From: Escherichia phage vB_EcoM_PD328
DNA length: 59,156 nucleotides
Reading direction: 5' to 3' (one strand)
Sequence record: ON922918
Under the pieces are notes generated by a model. That model was not told where the DNA came from. It ran no database searches and saw only the letters and a list, made by a program, of their open reading frames with translations. Shown piece by piece: positions 2,044 to 51,572 of this stretch. How positions within the stretch are numbered: the stretch's first letter is position 1; every line of letters begins with the position of its first letter. Made by a program: the position numbers and the translations under genes.

Positions 2044-5000
2044 TAAGCAGCCCTCACAATATAGTTGAATGCAACGTTCTTGACAGTGTTTTCTGTGTTG
2101 CCAGTTGCGTTAACTGTAACACCGTGGCTGTGTGAACCTAAAGCGACTGTGTGACTATGAGCACCAATACCAACTGTATGGGTATGAGCACCAATACCAA
2201 CAGTATGTGCGTGAGCGCCTGCGCTTGCAGCAGTACCAGATATAGAGTGCGAATGTGCCCCAGAAGAAGAAGTTCCAAGCGTATTACCACCACCGGCGGA
2301 TCCTCTTATAGCACCAATACCAGGAGCGTTGTTACTTCCCGCATAAAGAGCGCTTGTGTGGCTGTGCGCACCGGCGGTGTTTGTGGAACCGCTCAAACTA
2401 TGCGTATGCGCACCAGTATTATTACTCGTTTTAGTACCGTAATCGAAACTACTTGTCCCTTTAGTACCGTAATCAAAGCTAGAAGTCGTTTTACTTCCAA
2501 GATCGACAGATGCAGTAGACGCAGTGTGGGTATGCGATTTCACACCATCCGCTTCTGTAGAAAGTACGTCACGACCGCTTGCAGGCTTACCTTTGATAGT
2601 TTGACCACGCATGTCTGGCAGTACGCCCGACGGGTATGCAGCAGCCAATTGAGGGTATGCAGCTTTGTCGAATTCCTGCCCTTGCATCACGATGTATCCG
2701 GACGGAGGTGTATCCGTAGGCCACGGTAATGGGACACCTACAGGTAAACTTTCAGCTACAGGAGGTGGGTTCTTTTTAGTGTAAATTTGATCCCAGCCTT
2801 CTTCGAAACCGTGACCATCACGCGATGTACGATACCAAAGACCGCCATTCCTATACGTAGCTCTTATCTGCAAAGAAGGTGTTGAGGAGACAGCATTTTG
2901 ATAGTAATGCACTACAAGGTCCGAGCTGCCCTTTCTCGCATGCTTATAGACACCAGATATAGCGTTCCATGGAACACTGTTATTGTCTATATCACCTCCT
3001 ACAGTAATAATACCTGTTTGTCCTAACGCAAACGCATTCACGTTTCTAGGTGGAATCGATATATCTCCACTACCATCAAAAAGCACATTAGCAATCCTAC
3101 GTGCTGTCTGTAGTTTGGTGGCAGTTGCAGCGTTACCAGTTGTGTTCTGATTACCCTGAATGTTGACGCCTGGAAGATTGACGTCAGCAGTACCGTCGAA
3201 TGAGGCGCCACCAATTTTACGCGCAGTTTGTAGCTTCGTAGCACTGGACGCGTTACCATTCACACCTTGACCGGCGTTCAATTTAGTGCCAATAGTGAAC
3301 TCACCAGTAGCGTTATCAATCATAAATGGTCTTAGATTGTTCCAACCACCGTATTGATCGCCTTTAGCAGTGAATAAAAGATATGTCTTGGTGCCGTCAT
3401 TGCGCCATAATGCACCGTAGTCCCCACCAATCATACGGACCTGATTTCCACCGCGAGCTACAATTTCATCATTAGCGTAGATTTTACGACCACTAATATC
3501 TACATCCGTGATGAGTGCGTGCGAACTATAAAACCCTTTACCATTCGAGAAATCAAGTATAGTATCGGCCTCAATACATTCTGTTTTAGGGTTTGTGGCG
3601 CCCCATTTGTAAGTTGATTGCCCGATAACATAATCGGCAGATGGTACAACAACAGATAAGCCTTCTTCTACATATACAGCAATAGGAAACGCTTCACCTT
3701 CAACATAGAACACAGAACACAGATCATCCGCTTTGTTACCCATCATGATAGAATGAATAGCACGCTCATTTGCGCTATATGCGTGAAACATCCCATAAGC
3801 ATATTTTCCTCTGTCAGTCCAACCACCGGGCATGACAAATCCGTTGAACTCGCAGTTGTTTAGTCTATGGTCTCCTGTTCTTGAACGTGTACTTATCGTC
3901 ACCCTAGATGCTAATTCATCAACGAATCCAGCAGAACGACGAATGACCACAGGATAAAACTTACCTGCTTCAACTCCTGCGGGAGCATTCACTGTCGAAA
4001 ACTTCATTCCCCGTTTAGCGGCCATATCAGTCTTGCTGGCAGCATTAATGTTACTTAGAAAGCGACCCTTGTCCGGTATATCTGCACCGTTCTGATTCTT
4101 CTGCAATGCACCGAGAGCTAAGTTAACAGTCTCGCGTAAACCAACGTTATCAATGAACAGTTGCTTATTAGGAATGTCAGCACCGTTCTGGTCTTTGGCC
4201 AACTTACTGTTAATAAGTGTGGTTATAGTCGTTGCAAAGTTTGGATCATCACCAAGAGCGTCAGCTAACTCTTTCAGAGTGTTTAACGCATCTGGTGCAT
4301 CACCAATCAGTGCGCTTATAATTTGGTGCACAAACTGAGTTGTGGCAATCTGATTGTTATTAACTTCAGGTGCTGGAGTTGGTGCCGTTGGTACACCAGT
4401 TAGAACAGGACTACTTAACGGAGCTTTAGTATTAGCAACGTCCATGACTGCTTTAACAGCTTTCGGTGTAGCTGCCAGGTTCTCGGCGGTGCTGTTAGTA
4501 TCATTGCTAAGACGAACGATACCTTTAGTAGTCAAGGACGCATCTTCAAGACCAATTGCATCAGCAATCTCTTCCGCACGTTCAGCAGCAGCTTCTGAAC
4601 GCAAGGCGGCAGACTCAGATCTTCCAGCTGATGTACCAGCATTAGTTTCTGACGCTTTAGCGTTGGTTTCGCTCGCTTTAGCTGCGGTAGCACTAGCGGC
4701 AGACTCACCGGCTTTGTTAGTCGCAGTCTGAGCGGAAGCTGCCGCATTAGTTTCAGACGTAGACGCTGAAGCTGCCTTCTGTGTTGCAACCGTCTCACTT
4801 GCCTTAGCTGCATTAGCTGCGGTCTGCGATTTACCAGCAGAAGTAGCGGACTCAACTGCACTTGCTTCGGATGCGGCCTTTGCTGCCTCAGCAGCTACTT
4901 TCGCCTGATTAGCAGTGGTTGCACTTGCAGACGCTTCTTTTGCTTTAGTATCAGCCAAAGTCGCATTATTAGCAGATGCAGTTTCTGATACTTTAGCATT

Positions 5001-5660
5001 GTTAGCCGCAGTAGTTGCGGCATTTTTGAGAGCTGTTACTTCAGCGACGCCCTCTTCTTTAATATGCTGCGTGTCGGTTTTTAATTGCTGGACTTCAGCC
5101 TTGAGTCCTTGCACAGCAGTAAGAGCTTGTTGAGCTGATGTAGCAGAACCAGCCGCAGCGTTCTTGGATTGCAATGCGGAAGACGCACTAGCAGCAGATT
5201 CCTGTTTTGACAGCAGAGCTGACGCTGCGTCCGTTGCAGCAGAGTTTTTACTTGTCTCCGCATTAAGCTCACTCTTCTTAGCATTAGCAGCTGATTCAGA
5301 CGCTTGCAATGCAAATTGCTCAGAGTTAGCCACCAGTTGCTTTATCTCCTGAAGTATTTCAGGTGTGGTTTCTTCTGGAGCCCATTTAGTAAGATATGCG
5401 TTAAGTGAACCGTTCTGGCTATCCGCATAGATTACAATGTCACCCGCTTTATATGGTTCCTTACCTTCTGGCCCAATGATAACCACATAATGCCCGGTGT
5501 TCACTGTGACGTCGTAAGCACCTTGCGAATCGGTCTTAAATACCGCTTTACTTCCACCTAGGACTACAATAGTATTGCTTCGTGCAAGTAAGAAGACGTT
5601 TGCATTGACGATTGGTTTGTTCAATCCATCAACTAAAATACCATGTAAACGAATTGCCAT
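2043..5660 (-). CDS. tail fibre protein (long, L-shaped/side fibre type)
   Basis: 1205 aa; long Ala/Ser/Thr-rich coiled-coil shaft; internal repeats of the [11 protein letters not shown] type; Gly-rich C-terminus with multiple HxH repeats (GAHTHT, GAHSHT, GSHSHG). Confidence 0.8.
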
Positions 5661-9000: not shown

Positions 9001-9195
9001 AGCACGAATAACCTGCTTGCGCTCACTCTGAGATGTATAGGAGTCAAAGTTATAGCTCTGAGTCTTTGTAAGTAGACTACCAGCAGCACTGGCAGCAATC
9101 CCTATCACAAGAGCTACAGTGGCTGGGATTACACCGACAGCGGCACCGACAGCGGCACCGATAGCAACTACGGCTCCGATTATTGCTGGTGGCAT
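6052..9195 (-). CDS. tail tip / host-specificity protein (lambda J-like central fibre)
   Basis: 1047 aa; position after the minor tail proteins; fibronectin-III-like segment (YYWYVRAINAFGSSSF); hydrophobic Gly/Ala-rich N-terminus. Confidence 0.65.
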   Translation of the reverse strand: MPPAIIGAVVAIGAAVGAAVGVIPATVALVIGIAASAAGSLLTKTQSYNFDSYTSQSERKQVIRAAAASRTVVYGSTVSSGVLVFAEEEPGVQEPDKHGENHEKLTLVLALAGHELTAVGQVWLGDDAIESFGDKASYVIHNNPTKVSQDMLNRCPSWKSDMIGKGICWMQLNLVFDSEKFPSGLPNVKCLKKGRKVLDPRTGKMVFSNNAALVILDYLRVYLKRSDDAILWDQFKEAANICDESVRNADNTFEPRYTINGEFDIDEAPSKILEDMLDACGGELTYIGGKHGILVGAYYGPPELTLDTSCIAGDIKITPETAFKERTNTITGTYIDPLQNYQEADFPPVSVAEWIKQDGQEITQDVDYRFVTSPYQAQRLSNLTLKRKRIGRSIEIPCNMRGYRFRPGMYVYVDIPNIGMNKVEMRVIKWQFDPKGGVTVTVRQDFPDLWDDAIGKPVDRPDLVDLPTGGAMQPQNLQYEVLQISDVVQGVLSWQNIMAVAYNNVIIKKDGVTVLTVQVPGQSTRITGLIRGAYTAHVKAVAYTGATSPEAYLEFNIQAPSAPTSVEVTQGYFAVTLKPKSADLANVSTQYDFWTSGETRLPSAAVDVVEKQATRAGMGTTWTSEGLLNDHTYYWYVRAINAFGSSSFVEVAARCFTDAAGLIPQIDTEFKGTNTYRELMAEIGNVSDGVKSYVDNQIETSEGRLTQTIDTVQQSVVLVDGKVQQQGVTINEQGQLIDAQGKLIETNGQQIDVVKATVQEVSKSVVDLEGNVNAQWGAKIQVDSKGQKYVAGIQLGMEGSGGAIQSYFMVNANNFAIYNPTNSTADLAFAVKNGQVFMKATFIENGSIDNAKIGNYIQSNNYVAGSAGWKLNKAGDAELNNVTVRGIVYANGGRFTGEIQATSGKFKGTVEATSFIGDVCNMGVADDLYGEGSTYDMSRTITYKDTANTTKTITVMANLSGVPNYPGALLGVEIIVNGVTKSAAAGTSVRDPEGGMLATSGTVMATFRGVTASTVTAKIVFKQGATKRWLKSPTMIVTRGSGSFTYS

Positions 9196-14897: not shown

Positions 14898-16076
14898 TTA
14901 ACCAGCATTGACAGCAACCAGGCAAGGTGTGCTCGGTATGGTACGACCGTGTGAATCTGTTACTTCACATACATACTGACCGGCATCCGCCTCTTGTGCG
15001 TTAGCTTTAGTGTATGTCGCTTGTTTAGCTTCCGGAATAACAACACCACCTTTCTTCCATACATAGGTATAAGGTTCTTCGCCACCTTTGACCACAACTG
15101 AAAGGGTCAGCGTCTGCCCTTTAGTGATAGTCTTGTTTGCGGTAAGATCGGTCGTGAAAGACATCGGAGGAAGTTTGGTAATGCGAATGCTGTAACCTTC
15201 GTCCTGATCCAACAGACCAGTATAACTCATGTTCAGCATGATATCGCCTTCACCATCGATTGGACGAGGAGCTTCCGTAATCTTGATACGAGGCATACTG
15301 AAACGATAGCCAGCACCAGTAGTTCCGTCCAGGATGTCGATAGTCAGGTCACTTTCCTGTTCGTTCAGGAATTTACTACGCAGTTTGTTATCTTCGTAGT
15401 AGGCGGTCAGTGTACCACTAATCTGACGACGTTTAGAGCTTGGCTTAATGGAGAACTTGGAACCAACAACGAAGCGAGGCTCGATGCCGTTTTCAAGGTT
15501 AATAGCCATCTCAGTAATAACATCAACGGACACATCGCCCATAGCCAGCTTACCAGAGAAGCCATCCATAGGTGGTGTAGTCGTACGAGTGCCTTTACTT
15601 AGACCAGACGGCAGGGTAGCAGCTTGCTCCATTGTACGACCAACAATACCGAATTCTACGCCGGTGATAGCTTCAGCACTCACAGTAATTGCAAGACTGT
15701 TAACTTCACAACCGCGATAGATGGTATATGGGAAGTCCGTAATATCTGCGTTATAGTCGATAAAAGTAAAGGATTGGCGCTCGATGCCTGCGGTCAGCAC
15801 TTCACCCGCAAACGTACCACGTAATGCACCACCCAACAGGTCATCAAATGTCTCATAAGACAGTTCACCAGTTGCTGTACCTTCTACGTGACGAGCGCCA
15901 AGACGGAAATCCGCCACTTCCGCGTCATCCCGAATTTCTTCAGATTGCAGAGTAGCGACTTTAATATCAAGACCCGATTTAGTAGCACGAAAGACCTTCA
16001 GAGTTCCGCTAGACGGAGTGACACCGGAGGTCTGTTCTTTGATGTAATAGCTACTATAACGTGAACCTTCAGCCAT
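14898..16076 (-). CDS. major tail (tube) protein with C-terminal Ig-like domain
   Basis: 392 aa; position directly upstream of the chaperone genes; C-terminal Ig-like segment (TLTLSVVVKGGEEPYTYVWKKGG...GQYVCEVTDSHG). Confidence 0.7.
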   Translation of the reverse strand: MAEGSRYSSYYIKEQTSGVTPSSGTLKVFRATKSGLDIKVATLQSEEIRDDAEVADFRLGARHVEGTATGELSYETFDDLLGGALRGTFAGEVLTAGIERQSFTFIDYNADITDFPYTIYRGCEVNSLAITVSAEAITGVEFGIVGRTMEQAATLPSGLSKGTRTTTPPMDGFSGKLAMGDVSVDVITEMAINLENGIEPRFVVGSKFSIKPSSKRRQISGTLTAYYEDNKLRSKFLNEQESDLTIDILDGTTGAGYRFSMPRIKITEAPRPIDGEGDIMLNMSYTGLLDQDEGYSIRITKLPPMSFTTDLTANKTITKGQTLTLSVVVKGGEEPYTYVWKKGGVVIPEAKQATYTKANAQEADAGQYVCEVTDSHGRTIPSTPCLVAVNAG

Positions 16077-16078
16077 CG

Positions 16079-16546
16079 TTATATCCTCTGTTTAGGCTCA
16101 CGTGCGAGCCAGTAGATTGTTACATATTGAGCGTCCCAAACACCTTCAACACCACCGCGAGTGAAGTCTGCAATTGACGTTTGTCCACCTTGAGAAAACG
16201 TCTTTCTTGTCAGTCTTAACATGCAGCCGTCCGGTGCCTGGAGCTGTCTTGGTACACTAAAGATTTTACTCACATGGCCAAGAACAGCATTAGATTCTTC
16301 AATACCAGTATTCAATTGTGAATATACACCAATCTGTAAAAACCCACGCATTTCATTATCGCCATAAGGGCCTAACGTTACAGGGTCTTCACTGGATGGG
16401 GTATTGATGATCTTTAACCACACTTTAAAGCCGCTGGCATCAAATGTCAAGTTCTTCCACGCCATAGCGTGTGACATTTCAGCATAGTTATTCACTAAAT
16501 GTGATTTCAGGGTATCTTCGACCCATTGAAACGGATACGGGATCAT
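16079..16546 (-). CDS. tail completion / tail terminator protein (putative)
   Basis: 155 aa ORF in the head-tail joining block upstream of the major tail protein; positional inference only. Confidence 0.35.
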   Translation of the reverse strand: MIPYPFQWVEDTLKSHLVNNYAEMSHAMAWKNLTFDASGFKVWLKIINTPSSEDPVTLGPYGDNEMRGFLQIGVYSQLNTGIEESNAVLGHVSKIFSVPRQLQAPDGCMLRLTRKTFSQGGQTSIADFTRGGVEGVWDAQYVTIYWLAREPKQRI

Positions 16547-27260: not shown

Positions 27261-27472
27261 GATATTCTCCAGATTACACTATTTCGAATTTCATCATTCC
27301 AAACGTATTTCCCCTTCTCGCCATTTTTATAGGATGGAACAGAAAAAACGGAGGAACTTGGATATAGATCTGATGTTGTTAAGCGTATACGCTTACCGTC
27401 AAAAGGTCCACCAACACAAAGGAACAGACCAGTCTTAGGTTTCTTCAAAATGGTTCCTCCTCGTCTGTACAC
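27257..27472 (-). CDS. hypothetical protein
   Basis: 71 aa ORF overlapping its neighbours by 4 nt. Confidence 0.3.
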   Translation of the reverse strand: MYRRGGTILKKPKTGLFLCVGGPFDGKRIRLTTSDLYPSSSVFSVPSYKNGEKGKYVWNDEIRNSVIWRIS

Positions 27473-27939
27473 TGAGCCATTTTAAGAGTATAAGCTACGT
27501 CATAGAAGTCAACACCCTGACCACAGCTATCGCAGTAATGGCAGGCCAATCTCACAGCTTCTTCTGCGCCGCAACCTGCCGCCATTGTACCCATCAAGAA
27601 CTCAAACGCACTACCCTCGGCAATAAATTCGTTAGTGTCTGGTAGACCCAATTTACCATCGCCGTAGATAGGATACACGACAAGTTCCTGCGTCACTGCA
27701 ATACCATAACGGGAATCTGGATTCATATCCGAGAAAGGTTCTTTACGTCCACGAACCGTAGTTTTCAGATGTTCTACAATGTCATTTACAGGACGTAGTT
27801 TACCAGACATTGCAACAAGACACAGTCCAACCCCTGGAATATTGACAGTATGAACTTTATTCGTAGTTGTTGCAATATTACCCCATGTGACCTGACGATC
27901 CACAGCCAGTATACCATCACGATAAGCAATTGCGGTCAT
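27445..27939 (-). CDS. HslV/proteasome-beta-like Ntn-hydrolase peptidase (putative)
   Basis: Starts MT-AIAYRDGILAVDRQVTWGN, paralleling the HslV N-terminus (MTTIVSVRRNG...GDGQATLGN) with Thr as residue 2; later GSAFEF...GxGVDFY resembles the HslV GSGG region. Confidence 0.5.
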   Translation of the reverse strand: MTAIAYRDGILAVDRQVTWGNIATTTNKVHTVNIPGVGLCLVAMSGKLRPVNDIVEHLKTTVRGRKEPFSDMNPDSRYGIAVTQELVVYPIYGDGKLGLPDTNEFIAEGSAFEFLMGTMAAGCGAEEAVRLACHYCDSCGQGVDFYDVAYTLKMAQCTDEEEPF

Positions 27940-42979: not shown

Positions 42980-43405
42980 ATGGTCCAGTTACCAGAAATG
43001 AACTTAACTGAAGAGCAGAAATACGAACTTCTTTATAAGTGGTATTCTAAGAAAGAAGAATTAGCCAAGGTGCAAGCGCAAGAACGCGCACTGCGTCAAA
43101 GTGTAGTTAGCGTCTTCTTTCCTGATGGTCTTAACGAAAATACTAATAAGATCAAACTTGATACAGGTGACGATCTTGTTGTTACTCAACCTTATACGCG
43201 TAAAGTCGATAAGGCGATCTTTAGTCAAATCTTACCAGATCTTATTGAAGCTGGTGTGGATGTCAACGAAGTTACTGAAACTAAAGTGGAACTCCGTGTG
43301 GCTGCATATCGTAAGCTGACAGCTGAACAGTTGGCGATCTTTGACGAATGCGTGACCACAACTCCAGGTTCTCCACAAGTTAAGATCGCTGTTAAGAAGG
43401 GTTGA
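42980..43405 (+). CDS. hypothetical protein
   Basis: 141 aa ORF. Confidence 0.4.
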   Translation: MVQLPEMNLTEEQKYELLYKWYSKKEELAKVQAQERALRQSVVSVFFPDGLNENTNKIKLDTGDDLVVTQPYTRKVDKAIFSQILPDLIEAGVDVNEVTETKVELRVAAYRKLTAEQLAIFDECVTTTPGSPQVKIAVKKG

Positions 43406-44991: not shown

Positions 44992-45738
44992 ATGCAATTT
45001 ACAACTACCGCTCAAGCAGTTCTGGACACTGGTGTTAAGATGCTTGTGTATGGTGAATCTGGTATGGGTAAGACCATGCTTACAGCAACTCTTCCAAGAC
45101 CGTTGCTGATTTCTGCGGAGTCTGGGCTTTTATCTTTAACACCGAATAACATTGCTCGTGTATTTGGTGAAAACAGACCAGATATCTGCTACGATATTCC
45201 AACCATCACGGTTGAAAATATCCAGGATGTAGAGCAGGCTTATGTTTGGGCGACTAACCCTGCAAACAATCCTGTAGGTGAAGATGGTTTACCGCGCTTT
45301 CAGTCTCTTGCGCTGGATTCACTTACTGAGATTGCTGAAAAGTGCCTTAACAATGCGAAGCGTACTGTGAAAGATCCGCGTCAGGCTTATGGGGATCTTA
45401 TTGAGAAGATGCAAACTTTAGTTCGCGCTTTTCGAGATATCCCTGGACTTAACGTGTACATGGCAGCTAAAATGTCCCGTAACAAGGACGAGTTGACAGG
45501 TATTACGTCTTACGGTCCTTCTATGCCTGGTGCAAAATTAGGTCCAGAATTACCATACTTTTTTGACGAAGTGTTCAAAATTAGTGTTGGTAAAGACCAA
45601 AATACTCAAGCAGATTTTCGTTATCTGCTGACCAGACCAGATCTGTCAAATGTATGTAAAGATCGTTCTGGTTCGTTAGAACAGATGGAATATCCACATC
45701 TTGGTGCAATCATTAACAAAATCAAAGGGGTACAATAA
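44992..45738 (+). CDS. RecA-like AAA ATPase (Sak4-like recombination protein, putative)
   Basis: 248 aa; Walker A GESGMGKT near the N-terminus; Walker B-like LALD; size typical of phage Sak4-type ATPases. Confidence 0.5.
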   Translation: MQFTTTAQAVLDTGVKMLVYGESGMGKTMLTATLPRPLLISAESGLLSLTPNNIARVFGENRPDICYDIPTITVENIQDVEQAYVWATNPANNPVGEDGLPRFQSLALDSLTEIAEKCLNNAKRTVKDPRQAYGDLIEKMQTLVRAFRDIPGLNVYMAAKMSRNKDELTGITSYGPSMPGAKLGPELPYFFDEVFKISVGKDQNTQADFRYLLTRPDLSNVCKDRSGSLEQMEYPHLGAIINKIKGVQ

Positions 45739-46664
45739 TGGCCGGTTTAGGAATGCAATTTAACGCTGGACAACACGCAGAGCGTCAACACAATAGCTTG
45801 ATGCCCGCTGGTTGGTATGTTGTTCAGATTGTAAACTCTGAAATCAAACCGACTAAAACTCCAGGCGGTGCGCGTCTGAATCTTCAGTTTAAGATTATGC
45901 AGGGTGATTTTGCTGGTCGTGTAATGTTTGGCGGTTACAACGTCAAGAACGCGAACCCTGTCGCTGTACAGATTGCAATGGAAGAACTGGCAGAGCTGTC
46001 CCGTGCTGTTAAAGTTCCAGTTTGGAACGATACCGAACAACTGCACGGTATTCCGTTCAACCTGAAAGTGAAAGTTCGTCAGCAACCTGGCTATGAGCCA
46101 AACAACGAACCTCAGATTTATCAAGCAATTGATAATATGGAAGGTGTTGTATACGCAACTAAGGCGGACATGGCTAACCTGCCTAAATCAACTCCGGCAG
46201 CGGCAGCACAGTCTCCAGCATTTGGTGGTGGTGCGTTCGGTGGTACTCAGCAGCCACAGCAGCAACCGCAGCAGGGTTTCCCTGGTGCATTTGGGCAGCA
46301 GCCGCAGCAACAGCAGCAGCAGCAGCAACCTCAGACTCAGGGGTTCCAGCAGCAAGTACAGCAACAACAGCCGCAGCAGCCGGTACACCAACAGCAGCAA
46401 CCGCAGCAGTCTGGAACAGTTGATTTTAACAGTGCGGCACAATCTCAACCGTGGGTTAATGGTGCTCAGCAGCAGACTCAGCAGCAACCTAACTGGGCAA
46501 CTCAGCAGGTACAGCCTGGAGCAGAGCAACCACAAACTCAAGCTCAGAATACTGGTACTGCTAACCATGCAGAACCTGAAGTCCAGGATGATATCGCTAA
46601 AGCAGCTCAGACCAAGACTCCACCATGGAAACGTTCCACTGAAGGCGATGACGCTGCACAGTAA
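45738..46664 (+). CDS. hypothetical protein with Gln/Pro-rich low-complexity linker (possible ssDNA-binding protein)
   Basis: Folded N-terminal domain of about 150 aa, then a Gly/Gln/Pro linker encoded by CAG/CAA repeats (46250-46420), then an acidic C-terminus; architecture resembles bacterial SSB but lacks a DIPF tip. Confidence 0.4.
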   Translation: MAGLGMQFNAGQHAERQHNSLMPAGWYVVQIVNSEIKPTKTPGGARLNLQFKIMQGDFAGRVMFGGYNVKNANPVAVQIAMEELAELSRAVKVPVWNDTEQLHGIPFNLKVKVRQQPGYEPNNEPQIYQAIDNMEGVVYATKADMANLPKSTPAAAAQSPAFGGGAFGGTQQPQQQPQQGFPGAFGQQPQQQQQQQQPQTQGFQQQVQQQQPQQPVHQQQQPQQSGTVDFNSAAQSQPWVNGAQQQTQQQPNWATQQVQPGAEQPQTQAQNTGTANHAEPEVQDDIAKAAQTKTPPWKRSTEGDDAAQ

Positions 46665-46683
46665 TTAAAAATCATGTTATAAT

Positions 46684-46710
46684 AAAGCTCCTCCGGGAGC
46701 TTTATTTTTC
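46684..46710 (+). terminator. rho-independent terminator
   Basis: AAAGCTCC-TCCG-GGAGCTTT hairpin followed by ATTTTTC. Confidence 0.65.
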
Positions 46711-46726
46711 TATATAGGGTTATGAT

Positions 46727-47677
46727 ATGCCACATTTTTATCCTGCTACTAAGACAATGGAGTTATTCAATGACTGTATTGAACGAGATCAAGGATCCGC
46801 TTACAGAGTATGGCTCGGAAAAGTATTACCGCATATTGAAGACGCATATCGAGAGGGAGATGGCGGATTCCGTTCGCATCTTGGGATTAGTCTTATCGGG
46901 CAAGAATGTAGTAGAGCAATCTTCTACGGATGGAGATGGGCAACTAAACCACACTTTAACGGTAAAACCTTACGTCTATTCAATCGCGGGCATCTTGAAG
47001 AAGGTCGTTTCGTGGCCTTACTACTTACCGCCGGTATGCAAGTCATCCAACAAGACGAAAATGGCAGCCAGTATCGAGTCAGCTATCTCAACGGGCACTT
47101 TGGATCTGCAATAGATGGTATTGTCATTGGTTGCCCTGACATGCCACAACCTTCTACACCAATCTTGACGGAAATGAAAACGCACAATAACGATTCGTTC
47201 AAGAAACTTGTCGTTAATGGTGTGATGGAATCCAAATGGGAGCACTATGTTCAGATGCAGGAATACATGTTGTATTATGGACTCCCAGCCGCTCTTTATA
47301 TTGCAGTTAATAAGAACACGGATGAGATTTGGGCAGAGCTTGTACCGTTTGATAAAGAAACCGCAGAACGCTACAAAGACCGTGGATTTGTAATTGCACT
47401 AGCAGAATGCCCACCACCTAAGATCAATGAAAGTAAATCCTACTATAAATGCAAATGGTGTGACCACAAGGCGGTGTGCCATAACAACAAAATGCCTGAA
47501 GTTAACTGCCGTACATGTAAACACTCATACCCGCTTGAAGATGGAACCTGGAGATGTGCAATTAAGGTAGCTTCCGCTACTGCATACATCACCGATGGAA
47601 CAGAAGGTGTGTTAACGAAGGAAGATCAGATGGCAGCATGTGGTCAATACGAAGCAGCAGATTATTACGGTGAGTAA
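46727..47677 (+). CDS. PD-(D/E)xK exonuclease, Cas4/RecB-like with predicted Fe-S cysteine cluster
   Basis: IDGIV ... TEMKTH fits D...E-x-K; Cys at GQECSRA plus C-terminal CKWCDHKAVC (C-x2-C-x5-C) matches the four-cysteine arrangement of Cas4/AddB-type nucleases. Confidence 0.5.
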   Translation: MPHFYPATKTMELFNDCIERDQGSAYRVWLGKVLPHIEDAYREGDGGFRSHLGISLIGQECSRAIFYGWRWATKPHFNGKTLRLFNRGHLEEGRFVALLLTAGMQVIQQDENGSQYRVSYLNGHFGSAIDGIVIGCPDMPQPSTPILTEMKTHNNDSFKKLVVNGVMESKWEHYVQMQEYMLYYGLPAALYIAVNKNTDEIWAELVPFDKETAERYKDRGFVIALAECPPPKINESKSYYKCKWCDHKAVCHNNKMPEVNCRTCKHSYPLEDGTWRCAIKVASATAYITDGTEGVLTKEDQMAACGQYEAADYYGE

Positions 47678-49681
47678 ATGTTCAAACTACGTGATTATCA
47701 GCAAGAAGCTGTAAATAGTACATTGCGCTATTTTATCAAGCATGGTGAAAAGTCAGGAAATCCTGTTATCTTGTTGCCTACAGGGACTGGTAAGTCCCTT
47801 GTAATTGCTGGTCTATTAAAGACAATTCATGATAATTGGGGTAGTACCCGCATGATGGTAATTACTCACGTAAAAGAATTGATAGACCAGAACCACGATA
47901 AGTTCAAGAAGTTATGGCCTGAAGCACCGACTGGTATTTATAGTGCTGGTATGGGTCGCAAGGATAAGAACGCAATGATAACGTTCGCAGGTATTCAGTC
48001 TGTTGCAAAACAAGCTAAATACTTTGAGGACGTTGATATTATTATAGTGGACGAATGTGACCTTATTAGTCCAAATCAGCAAACAAGTTATCAGAAGTTC
48101 TTTGCACATATCCGTGAAAAGAACCCATATCTAAAGATTATCGGTCTTACTGCTACAAGCTGGCGTCTTGGTTTTGGTTCTATTATCAAAGATGACTATG
48201 CTCCTAATGCTCTATTTGATGAAATCGTATTTAACGCGTGTACTGTAGAGTGCTTCAACTGGTTTATTGATGAAGGTTATCTGGTTCCATTAGTACCACG
48301 TAAAACAAAGAAAGAGTATGATGTAAGTGGTGTTCATACTCGAGGCGGTGAGTTCATTGAAAGTGAACTTCAGAAGGTTGTAAACGACCCTGATGTAACA
48401 CGCCATTTGTTAGATGATGCGATTAGTATTGCGGAAGAAGAGGGCAGAATGAGTTGGCTTATCTTTTGTGCTGGTGTAGACCATGCAAAAGATGTAAAAG
48501 ACTATCTCAATGAACGCGGTATTAGTTGCGAAGTTGTAACTGGTGATACACCGAAAGCCTTGCGTGACCAGTACCTCATTGACTTTAAAGCTGGTCGTTT
48601 GCAGGCAATAGCGAACAACAACGTATTGACCACAGGCTTTGACCATCCTGGTCTTGACTTGATAATTGGTATGCGCCCGTCCCAATCTTCCCGCTTATGG
48701 GTTCAGATGCTTGGACGTGGTACTCGACCTGATTATGCTGATGGTTTTGATTTGACCACAACGGAAGGTCGTTTGCAAGCTATCTCCGCTTCGCATAAAC
48801 AGAACTGTCTTGTACTAGACTATGCGGGTAATACAAGACGTCTTGGACCTATTAACGACCCTGTAATTCCTAAGCGTCCAGGGCAGAAAGGAAAGTCCGC
48901 TGCACCTGTTAAAGAATGCCCGGTATGTAAAACCTGGAACCATGCGTCGGTTCGCTATTGTGGTGGGTTAAAACCATTCGATACAAGCAGTATGTCCCAT
49001 GAAGAAATACTCTATCTTCAAGGATTAGGGTATACCATTACAAATAATAAAGCGTGTCGTGCTGGTTATTGCGGTCATGAGTTTACTTTTGAGAAGAAAC
49101 TGATGGCGAGTGCTAGTACGAAAGCTATTATCAAGAATGATTTACCAGTCACTGAGGTATTGAAAGTTGATATGGTGAGTTACTATCGTCATGAGAACAG
49201 GGGTGACCGTTCTAAGCCACCAACACTTCGTGTCGATTATCTTTGTGGCTCACAAACTATTCAACAATATATTTGTCTGTTCCATACTGGCTTTGCAGGC
49301 AAGAAAGCGCGTAACTGGTGGCGCGAGCATTGCAGCTTGGCAATCCCAGCCAACATTGACGAAGCTCTTAATGTGGTCAGCCAACTCCGTGTACCGACGC
49401 ACATCTATGTCAACTTGAAGGGTAAGTTCCCTGAAGTGTTGAATAGTTGTTATGACGGTAGTGAGTTTGGTAAGAAAGAAGCAACTAATGAACGTCCGGT
49501 TGTACAAATCGCGGCAATGAATGGCTTGTCCCAGTTTGGTGGAAGTTATACGAATAAGTTTGATGAAGACGAGCAGACTGATTCTCGTACGACAGTGTTG
49601 CATTCTACGTCTAATCAACCTATTCTTACTGGTAACGGTAAAGAGCTACCACCAGATTTTGATGACGACATTCCATTTTGA
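47678..49681 (+). CDS. SF2 DEAD/DEAH-box-type helicase with SSB-like C-terminal tail
   Basis: Walker A LPTGTGKS, motif II VDECDL, helicase C-domain motifs; protein ends ...LPPDFDDDIPF, identical to the conserved C-terminal tip of E. coli SSB. Confidence 0.7.
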   Translation: MFKLRDYQQEAVNSTLRYFIKHGEKSGNPVILLPTGTGKSLVIAGLLKTIHDNWGSTRMMVITHVKELIDQNHDKFKKLWPEAPTGIYSAGMGRKDKNAMITFAGIQSVAKQAKYFEDVDIIIVDECDLISPNQQTSYQKFFAHIREKNPYLKIIGLTATSWRLGFGSIIKDDYAPNALFDEIVFNACTVECFNWFIDEGYLVPLVPRKTKKEYDVSGVHTRGGEFIESELQKVVNDPDVTRHLLDDAISIAEEEGRMSWLIFCAGVDHAKDVKDYLNERGISCEVVTGDTPKALRDQYLIDFKAGRLQAIANNNVLTTGFDHPGLDLIIGMRPSQSSRLWVQMLGRGTRPDYADGFDLTTTEGRLQAISASHKQNCLVLDYAGNTRRLGPINDPVIPKRPGQKGKSAAPVKECPVCKTWNHASVRYCGGLKPFDTSSMSHEEILYLQGLGYTITNNKACRAGYCGHEFTFEKKLMASASTKAIIKNDLPVTEVLKVDMVSYYRHENRGDRSKPPTLRVDYLCGSQTIQQYICLFHTGFAGKKARNWWREHCSLAIPANIDEALNVVSQLRVPTHIYVNLKGKFPEVLNSCYDGSEFGKKEATNERPVVQIAAMNGLSQFGGSYTNKFDEDEQTDSRTTVLHSTSNQPILTGNGKELPPDFDDDIPF

Positions 49682-50747: not shown

Positions 50748-51572
50748 ATGGCTAAAGAGAAAACTCCAGAGCAACTGGAAGCAGAAGAAGCAGCAAAGAA
50801 AGCAGCAAAAGAAGCTGAAGCAAAGAAAAAACGTGAAGCTGAAGAAAAAGCAGCACGTGAATTGCAGGCTAAAGTTGATGCCGCAATGAACGAAGCCACT
50901 GCCGGTTACAATGTGATCGAAGGTGTTGTGTCCGCTGTTAAAGAACAGTTTGACACTCTGCACGAAGGTTCGTTGCTGGACGAAGTTAAAGCAGTTGAAG
51001 GCGTAGTTACCGCTCAACTGAAGACCGCTAAAGAAGGTCTGAAAGCTGTTAAAGCAGCAGCACGTAAAGTTAAAGACAACGATCAACTGAAAACTGCCGT
51101 TGCAGCATCTGAAGATCTGGTTTCCGGTGTTGAAGCCACTCTGAAAGATGTTAAAGGCCGTGTATCCGCTGCCCGCGAAGCCACTAAAGCCGCTGAAAAA
51201 GCGAAACGTGACGCTGAACGCGCTGAGAAGAAACGTCTGCAAGACGAAGAGCGCGCTCGTAAAGCAGCAGAACGCGAAGCTAAGAAAGAGCCGGAACAGA
51301 ACGGTATTCGTAAGCCTGGTGTTGGTACTCTGTGCCGTGCTGCATGGGACATCTTTGATGCTGTTACCCTGGAGCTGGGCCAGACTGCACCGATCAGCTA
51401 CGTTCTGCCGGTTGCACTGGACAAAGGCCTGAACGAAGCGAACGTCAAAGCAGAATACGCTCGCTGGAAGAAATACATGGGCATTACTGGTCGCGTATCA
51501 GTTCCAGTACCTGCTAATATTGCACAGGCGGCCGCTAACGTAGAAATTCCGTCTCAGAAATCTGCAGAGTAA
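50748..51572 (+). CDS. Lys/Ala/Glu-rich coiled-coil protein of unknown function
   Basis: 274 aa; highly charged helical N-terminal two-thirds, distinct C-terminal domain of about 90 aa; own promoter and terminator; codon usage typical of highly expressed genes. Confidence 0.45.
   Translation: MAKEKTPEQLEAEEAAKKAAKEAEAKKKREAEEKAARELQAKVDAAMNEATAGYNVIEGVVSAVKEQFDTLHEGSLLDEVKAVEGVVTAQLKTAKEGLKAVKAAARKVKDNDQLKTAVAASEDLVSGVEATLKDVKGRVSAAREATKAAEKAKRDAERAEKKRLQDEERARKAAEREAKKEPEQNGIRKPGVGTLCRAAWDIFDAVTLELGQTAPISYVLPVALDKGLNEANVKAEYARWKKYMGITGRVSVPVPANIAQAAANVEIPSQKSAE

Follow-up and report, generated by a model that had tools for sequence, protein, structure and literature searches.

What is the function of a phage gene that follows a Sak4-like annealing ATPase and encodes a long run of glutamines and prolines? 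The question is raised by Escherichia phage vB_EcoM_PD328 (record ON922918), from which we analysed a stretch of 59,156 nucleotides (nt), referred to below as the window. The gene, at 45738-46664 on the plus strand, encodes a protein of 308 amino acids (aa) that equals gp13 of phage 9g. We consider it probable that the gene encodes the phage's own single-stranded DNA (ssDNA)-binding protein (SSB) of the DUF669 (N4-SSB-like) type, used in both replication and recombination, with an oligonucleotide/oligosaccharide-binding (OB) core, a tail that serves as a tether and a Pro-Pro-Trp (PPW) docking motif. This assignment draws on the family to which the protein belongs, its predicted fold, the conserved gene order, the predicted disorder of its tail, its conserved motifs and its variable length. 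The presence of such a gene is in itself ordinary; the gene is already annotated and its family is published, and the finding therefore adds little on its own. What remains new is the PPW-type tip together with the Trp-repeat tails, a natural series of linker lengths, and the mimicry of the host SSB tip by a neighbouring helicase.

The protein belongs to the DUF669 family and has a predicted OB fold

The protein matches the Pfam family PF05037 (DUF669) above the gathering threshold (E 1.4e-8; 35.3 bits, cut-off 21; residues 14-116), as do its relatives from phages CAjan, PaMx25, Shy and UPF_BP2, and it matches PHROG 6015, 'single strand DNA binding protein', over residues 3-300 (E 1.7e-94). 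RefSeq annotates 9g gp13 as 'single strand DNA binding protein; DUF669 family member' and its neighbours as 'Sak4-like ssDNA annealing protein', 'Cas4-domain exonuclease' and 'DNA helicase'; a genome-wide search of the phage 9g annotation found no second SSB listed. The Pfam scan gave no match to the canonical SSB family PF00436, and we found neither a sequence nor a structural match to the T7 gp2.5-like SSBs (DUF2815/Enc34 ORF6). The family is very large: residues 1-160 matched 5517 of 1.84 billion cluster representatives at E<=1e-3, and tblastn found the family in 375 phage records. Compared to other SSBs of PF05037/PHROG 6015, such as 9g gp13, Salmonella phage SE1 gp72, CAjan gp50 and PaMx25 gp49, nothing essential differs; in all of them a low-complexity tail that ends in PPW comes after the OB core, and the 308 aa of the protein studied here compare with 266-315 aa in relatives as a result of insertions and deletions (indels) in the Gln tract. 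The window itself is a Nonagvirus sequence. The Nonagvirus orthologues are 94-99% identical over the alignable parts and have the same gene order, and 17 Nonagvirus records (SE1, JenP1, JenK1, JenP2, 9g, BRET, ESCO3, FritzHoffmann and others) match the 2.7 kb around the gene at 95-98% identity.

The preliminary description, made from the sequence alone, had proposed an SSB-like architecture and had pointed to residues 1-150 as a candidate OB fold. Indeed, residues 1-160, modelled by AlphaFold2 with 48 homologues, are confidently predicted (predicted local distance difference test (pLDDT) 86.4, predicted template modelling score 0.76) to form a five-stranded barrel with the b1-b2-b3-helix-b4-b5 topology of OB domains (strands 25-38, 45-53, 62-70; helix 74-90; short helix 99-102; strands 107-114 and 122-129). 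Its structural neighbours are ssDNA-binding OB proteins, and together with the DUF669 and PHROG 6015 matches and the disordered tail described below, the barrel bears out the proposed architecture. The top match was PrgE (Foldseek E 2e-5 to the DNA-bound form), followed by RadD's C-terminal domain, Teb1, Rim1, LEF-3 and RPA70; canonical SSBs ranked low in the fold searches. Sequence searches of the Protein Data Bank (PDB) with the single protein and with two family profiles returned only low-complexity or chance matches, and no family member with a solved structure is detectable by sequence. Near-invariant residues are found at the start of b1 (G25, W26, Y27), in the b1-b2 loop (K37, P38, T39), after b3 (N68, N71, N73), and in the b4-b5 loop and the start of b5 (Y119, N123); in the model, these positions fit the usual nucleic-acid face of an OB domain. 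M1 and F8, in the N-terminal arm that precedes the core, are also nearly invariant in the family.

PrgE, a protein of the conjugative plasmid pCF10 (PDB 8S4S/8S4T), is an atypical SSB whose monomers bind ssDNA 'like beads on a string' and use their N-terminal tail to bind the adjacent subunit on the ssDNA (Breidenstein et al. 2024, PMC11137577). By analogy with PrgE only, the N-terminal arm of the phage protein might likewise contact an adjacent subunit. The two proteins are 13-14% identical and sequence profiles detect no similarity between them; unlike the phage SSB, PrgE has a short C-terminal tail and is neither phage-encoded nor linked to Sak4.

The SSB gene is coupled to sak4 within a conserved module

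The protein encoded immediately upstream, which had been noted as a Sak4-like ATPase, matches Pfam AAA_24 (E 6.8e-23) and PHROG 124, 'Sak4-like ssDNA annealing protein' (E 1.4e-54), and its AlphaFold model has pLDDT >90 over residues 11-240. The stop codon of sak4 overlaps the SSB start codon (TAATG), and a pattern scan found a terminator-like hairpin 17 nt past the SSB stop, with an RNA fold centroid of -15.7 kcal/mol (z = -2.8); terminators are annotated at the matching place after the SSB gene in PaMx25 and other relatives. The two genes are translationally coupled, and the SSB gene is the last of its transcription unit.

The order Sak4, DUF669, (small open reading frames (ORFs)), Cas4-domain exonuclease, superfamily 2 (SF2) helicase is found in 11/11 phages examined, which represent at least 8 classified genera and have hosts among Escherichia, Klebsiella, Pseudomonas, Salmonella, Pantoea, Providencia and Vibrio. 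The sak4 gene lies directly 5' of the DUF669 gene in all 11 and in both metagenomic contigs examined (2/2), and the SSB genes of HK620 (4481-5068 of locus L002) and N4 (15322-16119 of locus L017) also lie directly 3' of sak4. According to the literature, ∼80% of sak4 genes adjoin an ssb gene. Across genera, Sak4 homologues are ∼57-62% identical, compared to ∼35-45% for the SSB OB domain; from these identities, the SSB appears to evolve faster than Sak4, even outside the repeat.

Two published studies connect this family to tested SSBs. DUF669 was linked by HHsearch to the characterized N4 SSB, with a diverged OB fold predicted; the authors noted that no other SSB occurs in DUF669 phages and proposed a replicative role (Kazlauskas et al. 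2016, PMC4889955). The protein encoded next to sak4 in HK620 is a genuine SSB, assigned to DUF669, that stimulates annealing and recombineering by Sak4; its last six residues, NDYPPF, are needed both for this stimulation and for binding of Sak4 to SSB-coated ssDNA (Hutinet et al. 2018, PMC5928155). The HK620 SSB (HkaK/'Abc1') resembles the protein studied here in being a small OB-type SSB encoded immediately 3' of sak4 and in having a Pro-Pro-aromatic tip (NDYPPF versus TPPW), but differs in its length (195 aa), in its short, non-Gln tail and in the position of the tip, which is strictly C-terminal and ends in a Phe that is invariant in the HK620 SSB family.

With the HK620 protein as precedent, the gene could be a recombination-only accessory of Sak4, while the forks use the host SSB. 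The coupling to sak4, the position in a block with Sak4, exonuclease and helicase, and the place of the equivalent HK620 protein in a recombination module are all consistent with such a role. However, HK620 is temperate and uses the host replisome, whereas the 9g-like phages encode polymerase, clamp, primase, ligase and RNase H and no other SSB, and Kazlauskas et al. propose a replicative role for DUF669 (PMC4889955). We consider the restriction to recombination unlikely, and favour a protein whose OB domain would coat ssDNA both at phage replication forks and at the resected ends made by the neighbouring exonuclease and helicase.

In N4, the SSB uses its C-terminus to activate late transcription, and the protein studied here might double as an activator of late genes through its own C-terminal region. 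The published HHsearch link between the N4 SSB and DUF669 and the position of the N4 SSB gene after a sak4 gene speak for this, but the N4 SSB tail (…AAKSLFGKK) shares nothing with the tail described here, BLASTP and hhalign profile comparison with the N4 SSB were not significant, and nothing in the window points that way; we regard this additional function as very improbable.

The tail is predicted to be disordered and carries conserved Trp islands and a PPW tip

Residues 151-308 consist of 34% Q, 13% A, 11% P and 9% G, with 44 residues Q or N in the best 80-residue window. In an AlphaFold model of Sak4 joined to this tail, the tail has pLDDT <50 almost throughout and no secondary structure, and it is predicted to be intrinsically disordered. 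We compared the protein with 47 cluster representatives, each at least 91% identical to it (the close relatives), and found three near-invariant Trp islands (SGTVDFNSAAQSQPW, QPNWATQQVQPG and PEVQDDIAKAAQTKTPPW), in which the Trp is invariant. The tail is not a plain linker, as it carries conserved Trp and Phe islands.

Beyond the close relatives, the PPW motif is the sole element conserved outside the OB domain. It forms the end of the near-terminal sequence AAQTKTPPW, and the PPW columns are at least 90% conserved in a family alignment (A1). In 146 family representatives of at least 150 aa, a tail Trp is present in 142, the last Trp lies at a median of 4 residues from the C-terminus, and it is preceded by P at -2 in 78% and at -1 in 86%. 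Each tail has 1-6 Trp, mostly in PPW (103 cases) or QPW (73); at 2.4% of tail residues, Trp is more frequent than either Phe or Tyr. Similarly, among the best 150 of the 5517 representatives, PP[FWY] is found near the end in 94, and most tails are near-neutral with PPW-type ends, while a few end in DDDIPF or VPF (ESVPF). The tails of CAjan, PaMx25, Vid5, PSTCR7, Yazdi-M, Shy and the Vibrio phages are rich in Q/G/P/A/N and carry QPW, GW or AW repeats, and in several other genera the tip extends to [E]PxHPAQ[SA]x[TV]PPW, the counterpart of which here is DDIAKAAQTKTPPW.

The preliminary description had seen a Q/P linker followed by a short acidic C-terminus, without the acidic tip of bacterial SSBs. 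Both the linker and the acidic end are present, but the linker carries the Trp and Phe islands and the acidic end has a narrow distribution. The end KRSTEGDDAAQ is near-identical in all full-length close relatives (four have single substitutions; P0048 ends earlier), but KRSTEGDDAAQ-type ends are found only in Nonagvirus-level relatives and two or three near ones, with a related ...EDGAAQ end in the near relatives P0051/P0053/P0056 and P0059; the rest of the family mostly has 0-8 residues after the last Trp. The last 33 residues of the protein include 7 acidic and 4 basic residues (net charge -3) and no DIPF. It is correct, then, that there is no acidic DIPF end, but a conserved, tip-like AAQTKTPPW takes its place throughout the subfamily. 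An acidic C-terminal tail 'typical of SSBs' has been described for DUF669 (PMC4889955); the searchable literature yielded no description of the PPW-type tip or of Trp-repeat tails in phage SSBs.

The E. coli SSB (PF00436) shares the three-part layout of core, disordered linker and tip, as well as a Q/P/G linker composition with isolated Trp and Phe, but its tip is an acidic IPF-COOH (DDDIPF) rather than PPW plus further residues. The tip of the phage protein is Pro-aromatic, like bacterial IPF and HK620 PPF, although it uses Trp and is generally not acidic.

The Q/P tract varies in length among relatives

The near-microsatellite of CAG, CAA and CCG codons that had been noticed at about 46250-46420 is present as stated. 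Codons 171-225 include 26 CAG, 8 CAA and 8 Pro codons, such that 34 of the 55 encode Gln (62% Q, 15% P). Runs of 4 or more CA[AG] codons occur three times in the gene and nowhere else on either strand of the 59-kb window. The Q content of the gene peaks at 49 per 100 aa, whereas the median over all stop-free stretches that reach 100 aa is 5. Tandem Repeats Finder (TRF) places the window's only period-3 array here, (GCA)11 with a score of 52, nested inside an array with a 27-nt period at 46295-46409. The term near-microsatellite is fair: the longest pure run is (CAG)5, and the repeat is an interrupted, imperfect microsatellite.

The repeat had also been proposed as a site of replication slippage and length polymorphism, and the relatives agree with this, since the length is far from invariant. 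The 47 close relatives have 17 different lengths (266-309 aa; 266-315 aa for relatives overall). The first 170 residues are gap-free and the last ∼45 are near-identical, with few point substitutions; all indels lie within residues 171-275, nearly all of them in 171-225 and 245-255. Larger indels of up to about 42 residues also fall in the tract and in residues ∼245-255. When eight sequenced isolates (301-315 aa) are aligned by codon, indels of 1-4 codons lie inside the CAG/CAA/CCG runs. This pattern has the signature expected of slippage or unequal recombination between short repeats. In JenP2, a second GFPGAFGQQP unit replaces a QPQQPVHQQ segment at codons ∼216-224 of the isolate alignment, a duplication whose sequence suggests that, besides triplet slippage, the Phe islands have recombined unequally.

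The repeat unit is a triplet, and slippage therefore alters linker length while the reading frame is kept. As the frame is never lost, slippage yields length alleles and not phase variation, which we rejected for this reason; the alleles would be neutral or nearly neutral, with no on/off switch.

Alternatively, the Q/P tract might be only a passive spacer that drifts by triplet slippage, with Trp and Phe islands and a PPW that have no partner, while the OB domain does everything. The 17 lengths and the frequent Q-to-P substitutions in the tract fit this explanation, as does the lack of predicted docking of the tail on Sak4 (see below). Moreover, the short natural alleles P0046 (266 aa) and P0047 (275 aa), both on phage-sized contigs, lack ∼30-40 tail residues, and considerable shortening of the tail is therefore tolerated. 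However, conservation in the tail is not what we would expect from drift. Islands SGTVDFNSAAQSQPW and QPNWATQQVQPG are free of indels while the flanking Q tracts vary, the last ∼45 residues are virtually so (one two-residue deletion, in P0033) with scattered substitutions, and the Trp residues and PPW are invariant in the close relatives. Even representatives with no more than 30-45% identity in the OB domain keep the near-C-terminal PPW, and Trp exceeds Phe and Tyr in the tails of the family. The conserved islands, the PPW and the Trp content therefore argue that the spacer is not purely neutral, and we find the purely passive explanation quite unlikely.

The tail may serve as a tether and a docking site

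How might the tail contribute to an SSB that probably acts in both replication and recombination? As a flexible tether, it would present three Trp and six Phe 'stickers' in a Gln/Pro/Gly/Ala background, which could make multivalent weak contacts. We liken this putative role to that of the Gly/Gln/Pro linker of the E. coli SSB in cooperativity and condensation; that disordered linker supports non-nearest-neighbour cooperativity and phase separation (PMC7584906; 10.1101/2022.01.17.476650; PMC12143593). AAQTKTPPW would then be where phage partner proteins dock; Sak4 is the likeliest of these, and the first candidate because of the HK620 precedent of the NDYPPF tip. We infer that the protein binds ssDNA, that the tail has this role and that the PPW partner is of this kind.

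A different emphasis is that the tail mainly self-associates, its stickers and PPW binding the OB domains of neighbouring subunits to build cooperative filaments or condensates rather than recruiting enzymes. All relatives have 1-6 Trp motifs in Q/G/P/A-rich tails, which amounts to a sticker-and-spacer composition, and the Q/N content of the best window, the precedent of the E. coli linker and the beads-on-a-string filaments of the structural neighbour PrgE all fit. On the other hand, the best-conserved motif lies at the end, where tips that dock partners typically sit, and what HK620 offers as precedent is the loading of a partner. Self-association as the main function is possible, although we hold it only tentatively; it is compatible with partner docking, and the two are not mutually exclusive.

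Several results weigh against the assignment of an SSB with PPW docking. The homology to the HK620 SSB was not reproduced: BLASTP gave E 16, hhalign of the family profile against the single HK620 sequence gave 0.7% probability, and family-versus-family profiles gave a co-linear 78-column alignment with 2% probability (E 0.022). The Pfam DUF669 model matches neither the HK620 SSB nor the N4 SSB at E<=0.1, although the NCBI label for HK620-like proteins is 'DUF669 domain-containing'. The link to tested SSBs rests on the literature and synteny because direct homology is not significant, and the experimental support for DUF669 as an SSB family rests on remote-homology arguments. The nearest structure, PrgE, binds double-stranded DNA equally well as ssDNA. 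When SSB residues 151-308 were fused to Sak4 and modelled with AlphaFold, no docking was predicted and the tail, PPW included, stayed at pLDDT <50 almost throughout; this negative is weak because the HK620 interaction needs ssDNA-bound SSB and ATP, and there is no contact map. In two metagenomic contigs, DUF669 proteins with DDDIPF or VPF (ESVPF) tips also lie directly 3' of AAA_24/Sak4, and therefore tip type is not set by Sak4 alone; we rejected a dependence of tip type on Sak4 adjacency, which fails to discriminate the tips. Finally, 11 residues follow PPW here, compared to a family median of 4, which precludes binding in the style of the C-terminal hexapeptide of bacterial SSB (SSB-Ct). 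Since SSB-Ct uses the carboxylate of its terminal Phe, the binding mode of PPW would not be that of SSB-Ct.

The neighbouring helicase ends in a mimic of the host SSB tip

The DIPF that is absent from the SSB had been noticed at the end of the nearby helicase, and the helicase does indeed end in ...PPDFDDDIPF, at the end of a C-terminal extension beyond its conserved body. In bacterial SSB, DDDIPF is the conserved hexapeptide that forms SSB-Ct (PMC5872125; PMC10018359). Among relatives, the linker leading up to the tip diverges but the tip itself persists: the helicase ends in PPDFDDDIPF in the window, PMDFDDDIPF in Klebsiella phage vB_Kpn2-P2, DLDDDIPF in Pseudomonas phage PaMx25, EDPDYVPF in CAjan, LPDPDVPF in Vid5 and NPDEAPW in PSTCR7. 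The helicases of Yazdi-M, Shy, UPF_BP2 and Vibrio K251 g3, from four other genera, are shorter and have no extension, and that of Vibrio R29Z ends in ...PVISF, which is not tip-like. We found no evidence of a recent capture of a host ssb 3' end at the DNA level, as the last ∼46 nt are 80-89% identical to ssb 3' ends with E of 0.2-10; this weak DNA match is compatible with a constraint on the peptide.

Both the SSB gp2.5 and the helicase-primase gp4 of T7 have acidic, Phe-terminated C-terminal tails that bind the polymerase. T7 gp4 is a precedent for a phage helicase with an SSB-like C-terminal tail, although gp2.5 and gp4 differ in folds and families from the proteins studied here, and, unlike in T7, the acidic Phe tip is here on the helicase alone and copies the tip of the host SSB, not that of the phage SSB. 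We found no description in the literature of a DDDIPF tip on phage helicases; the report on the Nonagvirus helicase as a retron trigger (PMC12746101) has no bearing on the SSB. Judged by the sequence of its tip, it may be the helicase and not the phage SSB that talks to the clients of the host SSB, and the tip is arguably the more unusual feature here.

For 9g-like and related ∼60-kb siphoviruses, one might speculate that the jobs of an SSB tail are split, with the PPW/QPW of the phage SSB addressing phage partners (Sak4, the replisome), the DDDIPF of the helicase recruiting or titrating host SSB-interacting proteins, and PPW constituting an undescribed class of tip. We regard this division of labour as somewhat doubtful. 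If it were true, the PPW tip class would span the bulk of a very large DUF669 subfamily, which occurs with Sak4 in many virulent siphoviruses and has a near-terminal PPW and internal Trp repeats in place of the classical acidic tip. W297 and TPPW provide a handle for studying the recruitment of Sak4 or of the phage replisome, the natural Gln-tract alleles (266-315 aa) form a ready series for relating linker length to SSB function, and the helicase tip suggests a route by which a phage plugs into, or jams, the host SSB interactome.

A scan of window ORFs of at least 80 aa found an acidic Pro-Phe tail only on the helicase and on a protein of 164 aa (27445-27939, minus strand; PHROG 1040, 'peptidase HslV family', E 7e-35) that ends in ...CTDEEEPF; it also returned one non-acidic end, ...QYYPFKEK.

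Features of the locus and additional observations

Coordinates of the features are collected in Table 1.

Table 1. Position of sak4, the SSB gene, their downstream neighbours and the sequence elements discussed in the text
Feature	Position	Strand	Detail or basis
sak4	44992..45738	+	Sak4-like RecA-fold ssDNA-annealing ATPase, 248 aa
Shine-Dalgarno-like AAGGGG	45725..45730	+	7 nt 5' of SSB ATG; read from sequence
SSB gene, DUF669-family phage SSB	45738..46664	+	Pfam, PHROG, RefSeq annotation of 9g, SE1, JenP1
N-terminal arm, residues 1-22, MAGLGMQFNAGQ...	45738..45803	+	pLDDT 60-63
Predicted OB-fold core, residues 23-130	45804..46127	+	AlphaFold2 model
Predicted disordered C-terminal tail, residues 151-308	46188..46661	+	composition; AlphaFold
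Trp-containing tail peptide AAQTKTPPWKRSTEGDDAAQ			
CAG/CAA/CCG near-microsatellite, Q/P tract, residues 171-225	46248..46412	+	composition, TRF
Phe island GFPGAFG, interrupting Q/P tract	46275-46295	+	sequence
Phe island QGFQ, interrupting Q/P tract	46338-46349	+	sequence
Trp island SGTVDFNSAAQSQPW	46410-46454	+	alignment of 47 close relatives
Trp island QPNWATQQVQPG	46485-46520	+	alignment of 47 close relatives
Tip motif DDIAKAAQTKTPPW, residues 284-297	46587..46628	+	core TPPW 46617-46628; W297
Acidic appendix KRSTEGDDAAQ after PPW	46629..46661	+	protein ends ...TPPWKRSTEGDDAAQ
Intrinsic-terminator-like hairpin	46681..46716	+	11-bp stem, 4-nt loop, then T run
Cas4-domain exonuclease (PD-(D/E)XK, Cys-cluster)	46727..47677	+	PHROG 1990 E 7.9e-115; position kept in relatives
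SF2 helicase, 667 aa	47678..49681	+	Pfam ResIII, DEAD, Helicase_C
Helicase C-terminal extension, ∼70 residues	49460-49678	+	beyond conserved body
Helicase tip PPDFDDDIPF	49649-49678	+	read from sequence
Helicase tail peptide GKELPPDFDDDIPF			

Two further ORFs overlap the SSB gene, 46093-46668 on the plus strand (191 aa, Ser/Arg/Leu-rich) and 46188-46568 on the minus strand (126 aa, Leu-rich); we rejected both as genes, as they are artefacts of the frames of (CAG)n. A sigma-70-like promoter match (46655-46683; 10/12, extended -10 TG) overlaps the end of the SSB gene and could serve the expression of the downstream exonuclease and helicase genes.

Upstream of the block of ligase and Sak4, a DUF7173 protein (42980-43405, plus strand; E 1.8e-37) is labelled 'putative DNA binding protein' in 9g, and in an unrelated metagenomic contig (L022) a DUF7173 gene (3038-3445) lies immediately 5' of an AAA_24-DUF669 pair, which suggests a conserved functional link of DUF7173 to the Sak4-SSB pair. 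Other tandem repeats in the window are located at 2156-2216 (27-nt unit x2.2, 87-96% match), at 9132-9165 (12-nt unit x2.8) and at 50780-50861, the last with AAG/GCA-rich units of 12 and 24 nt.

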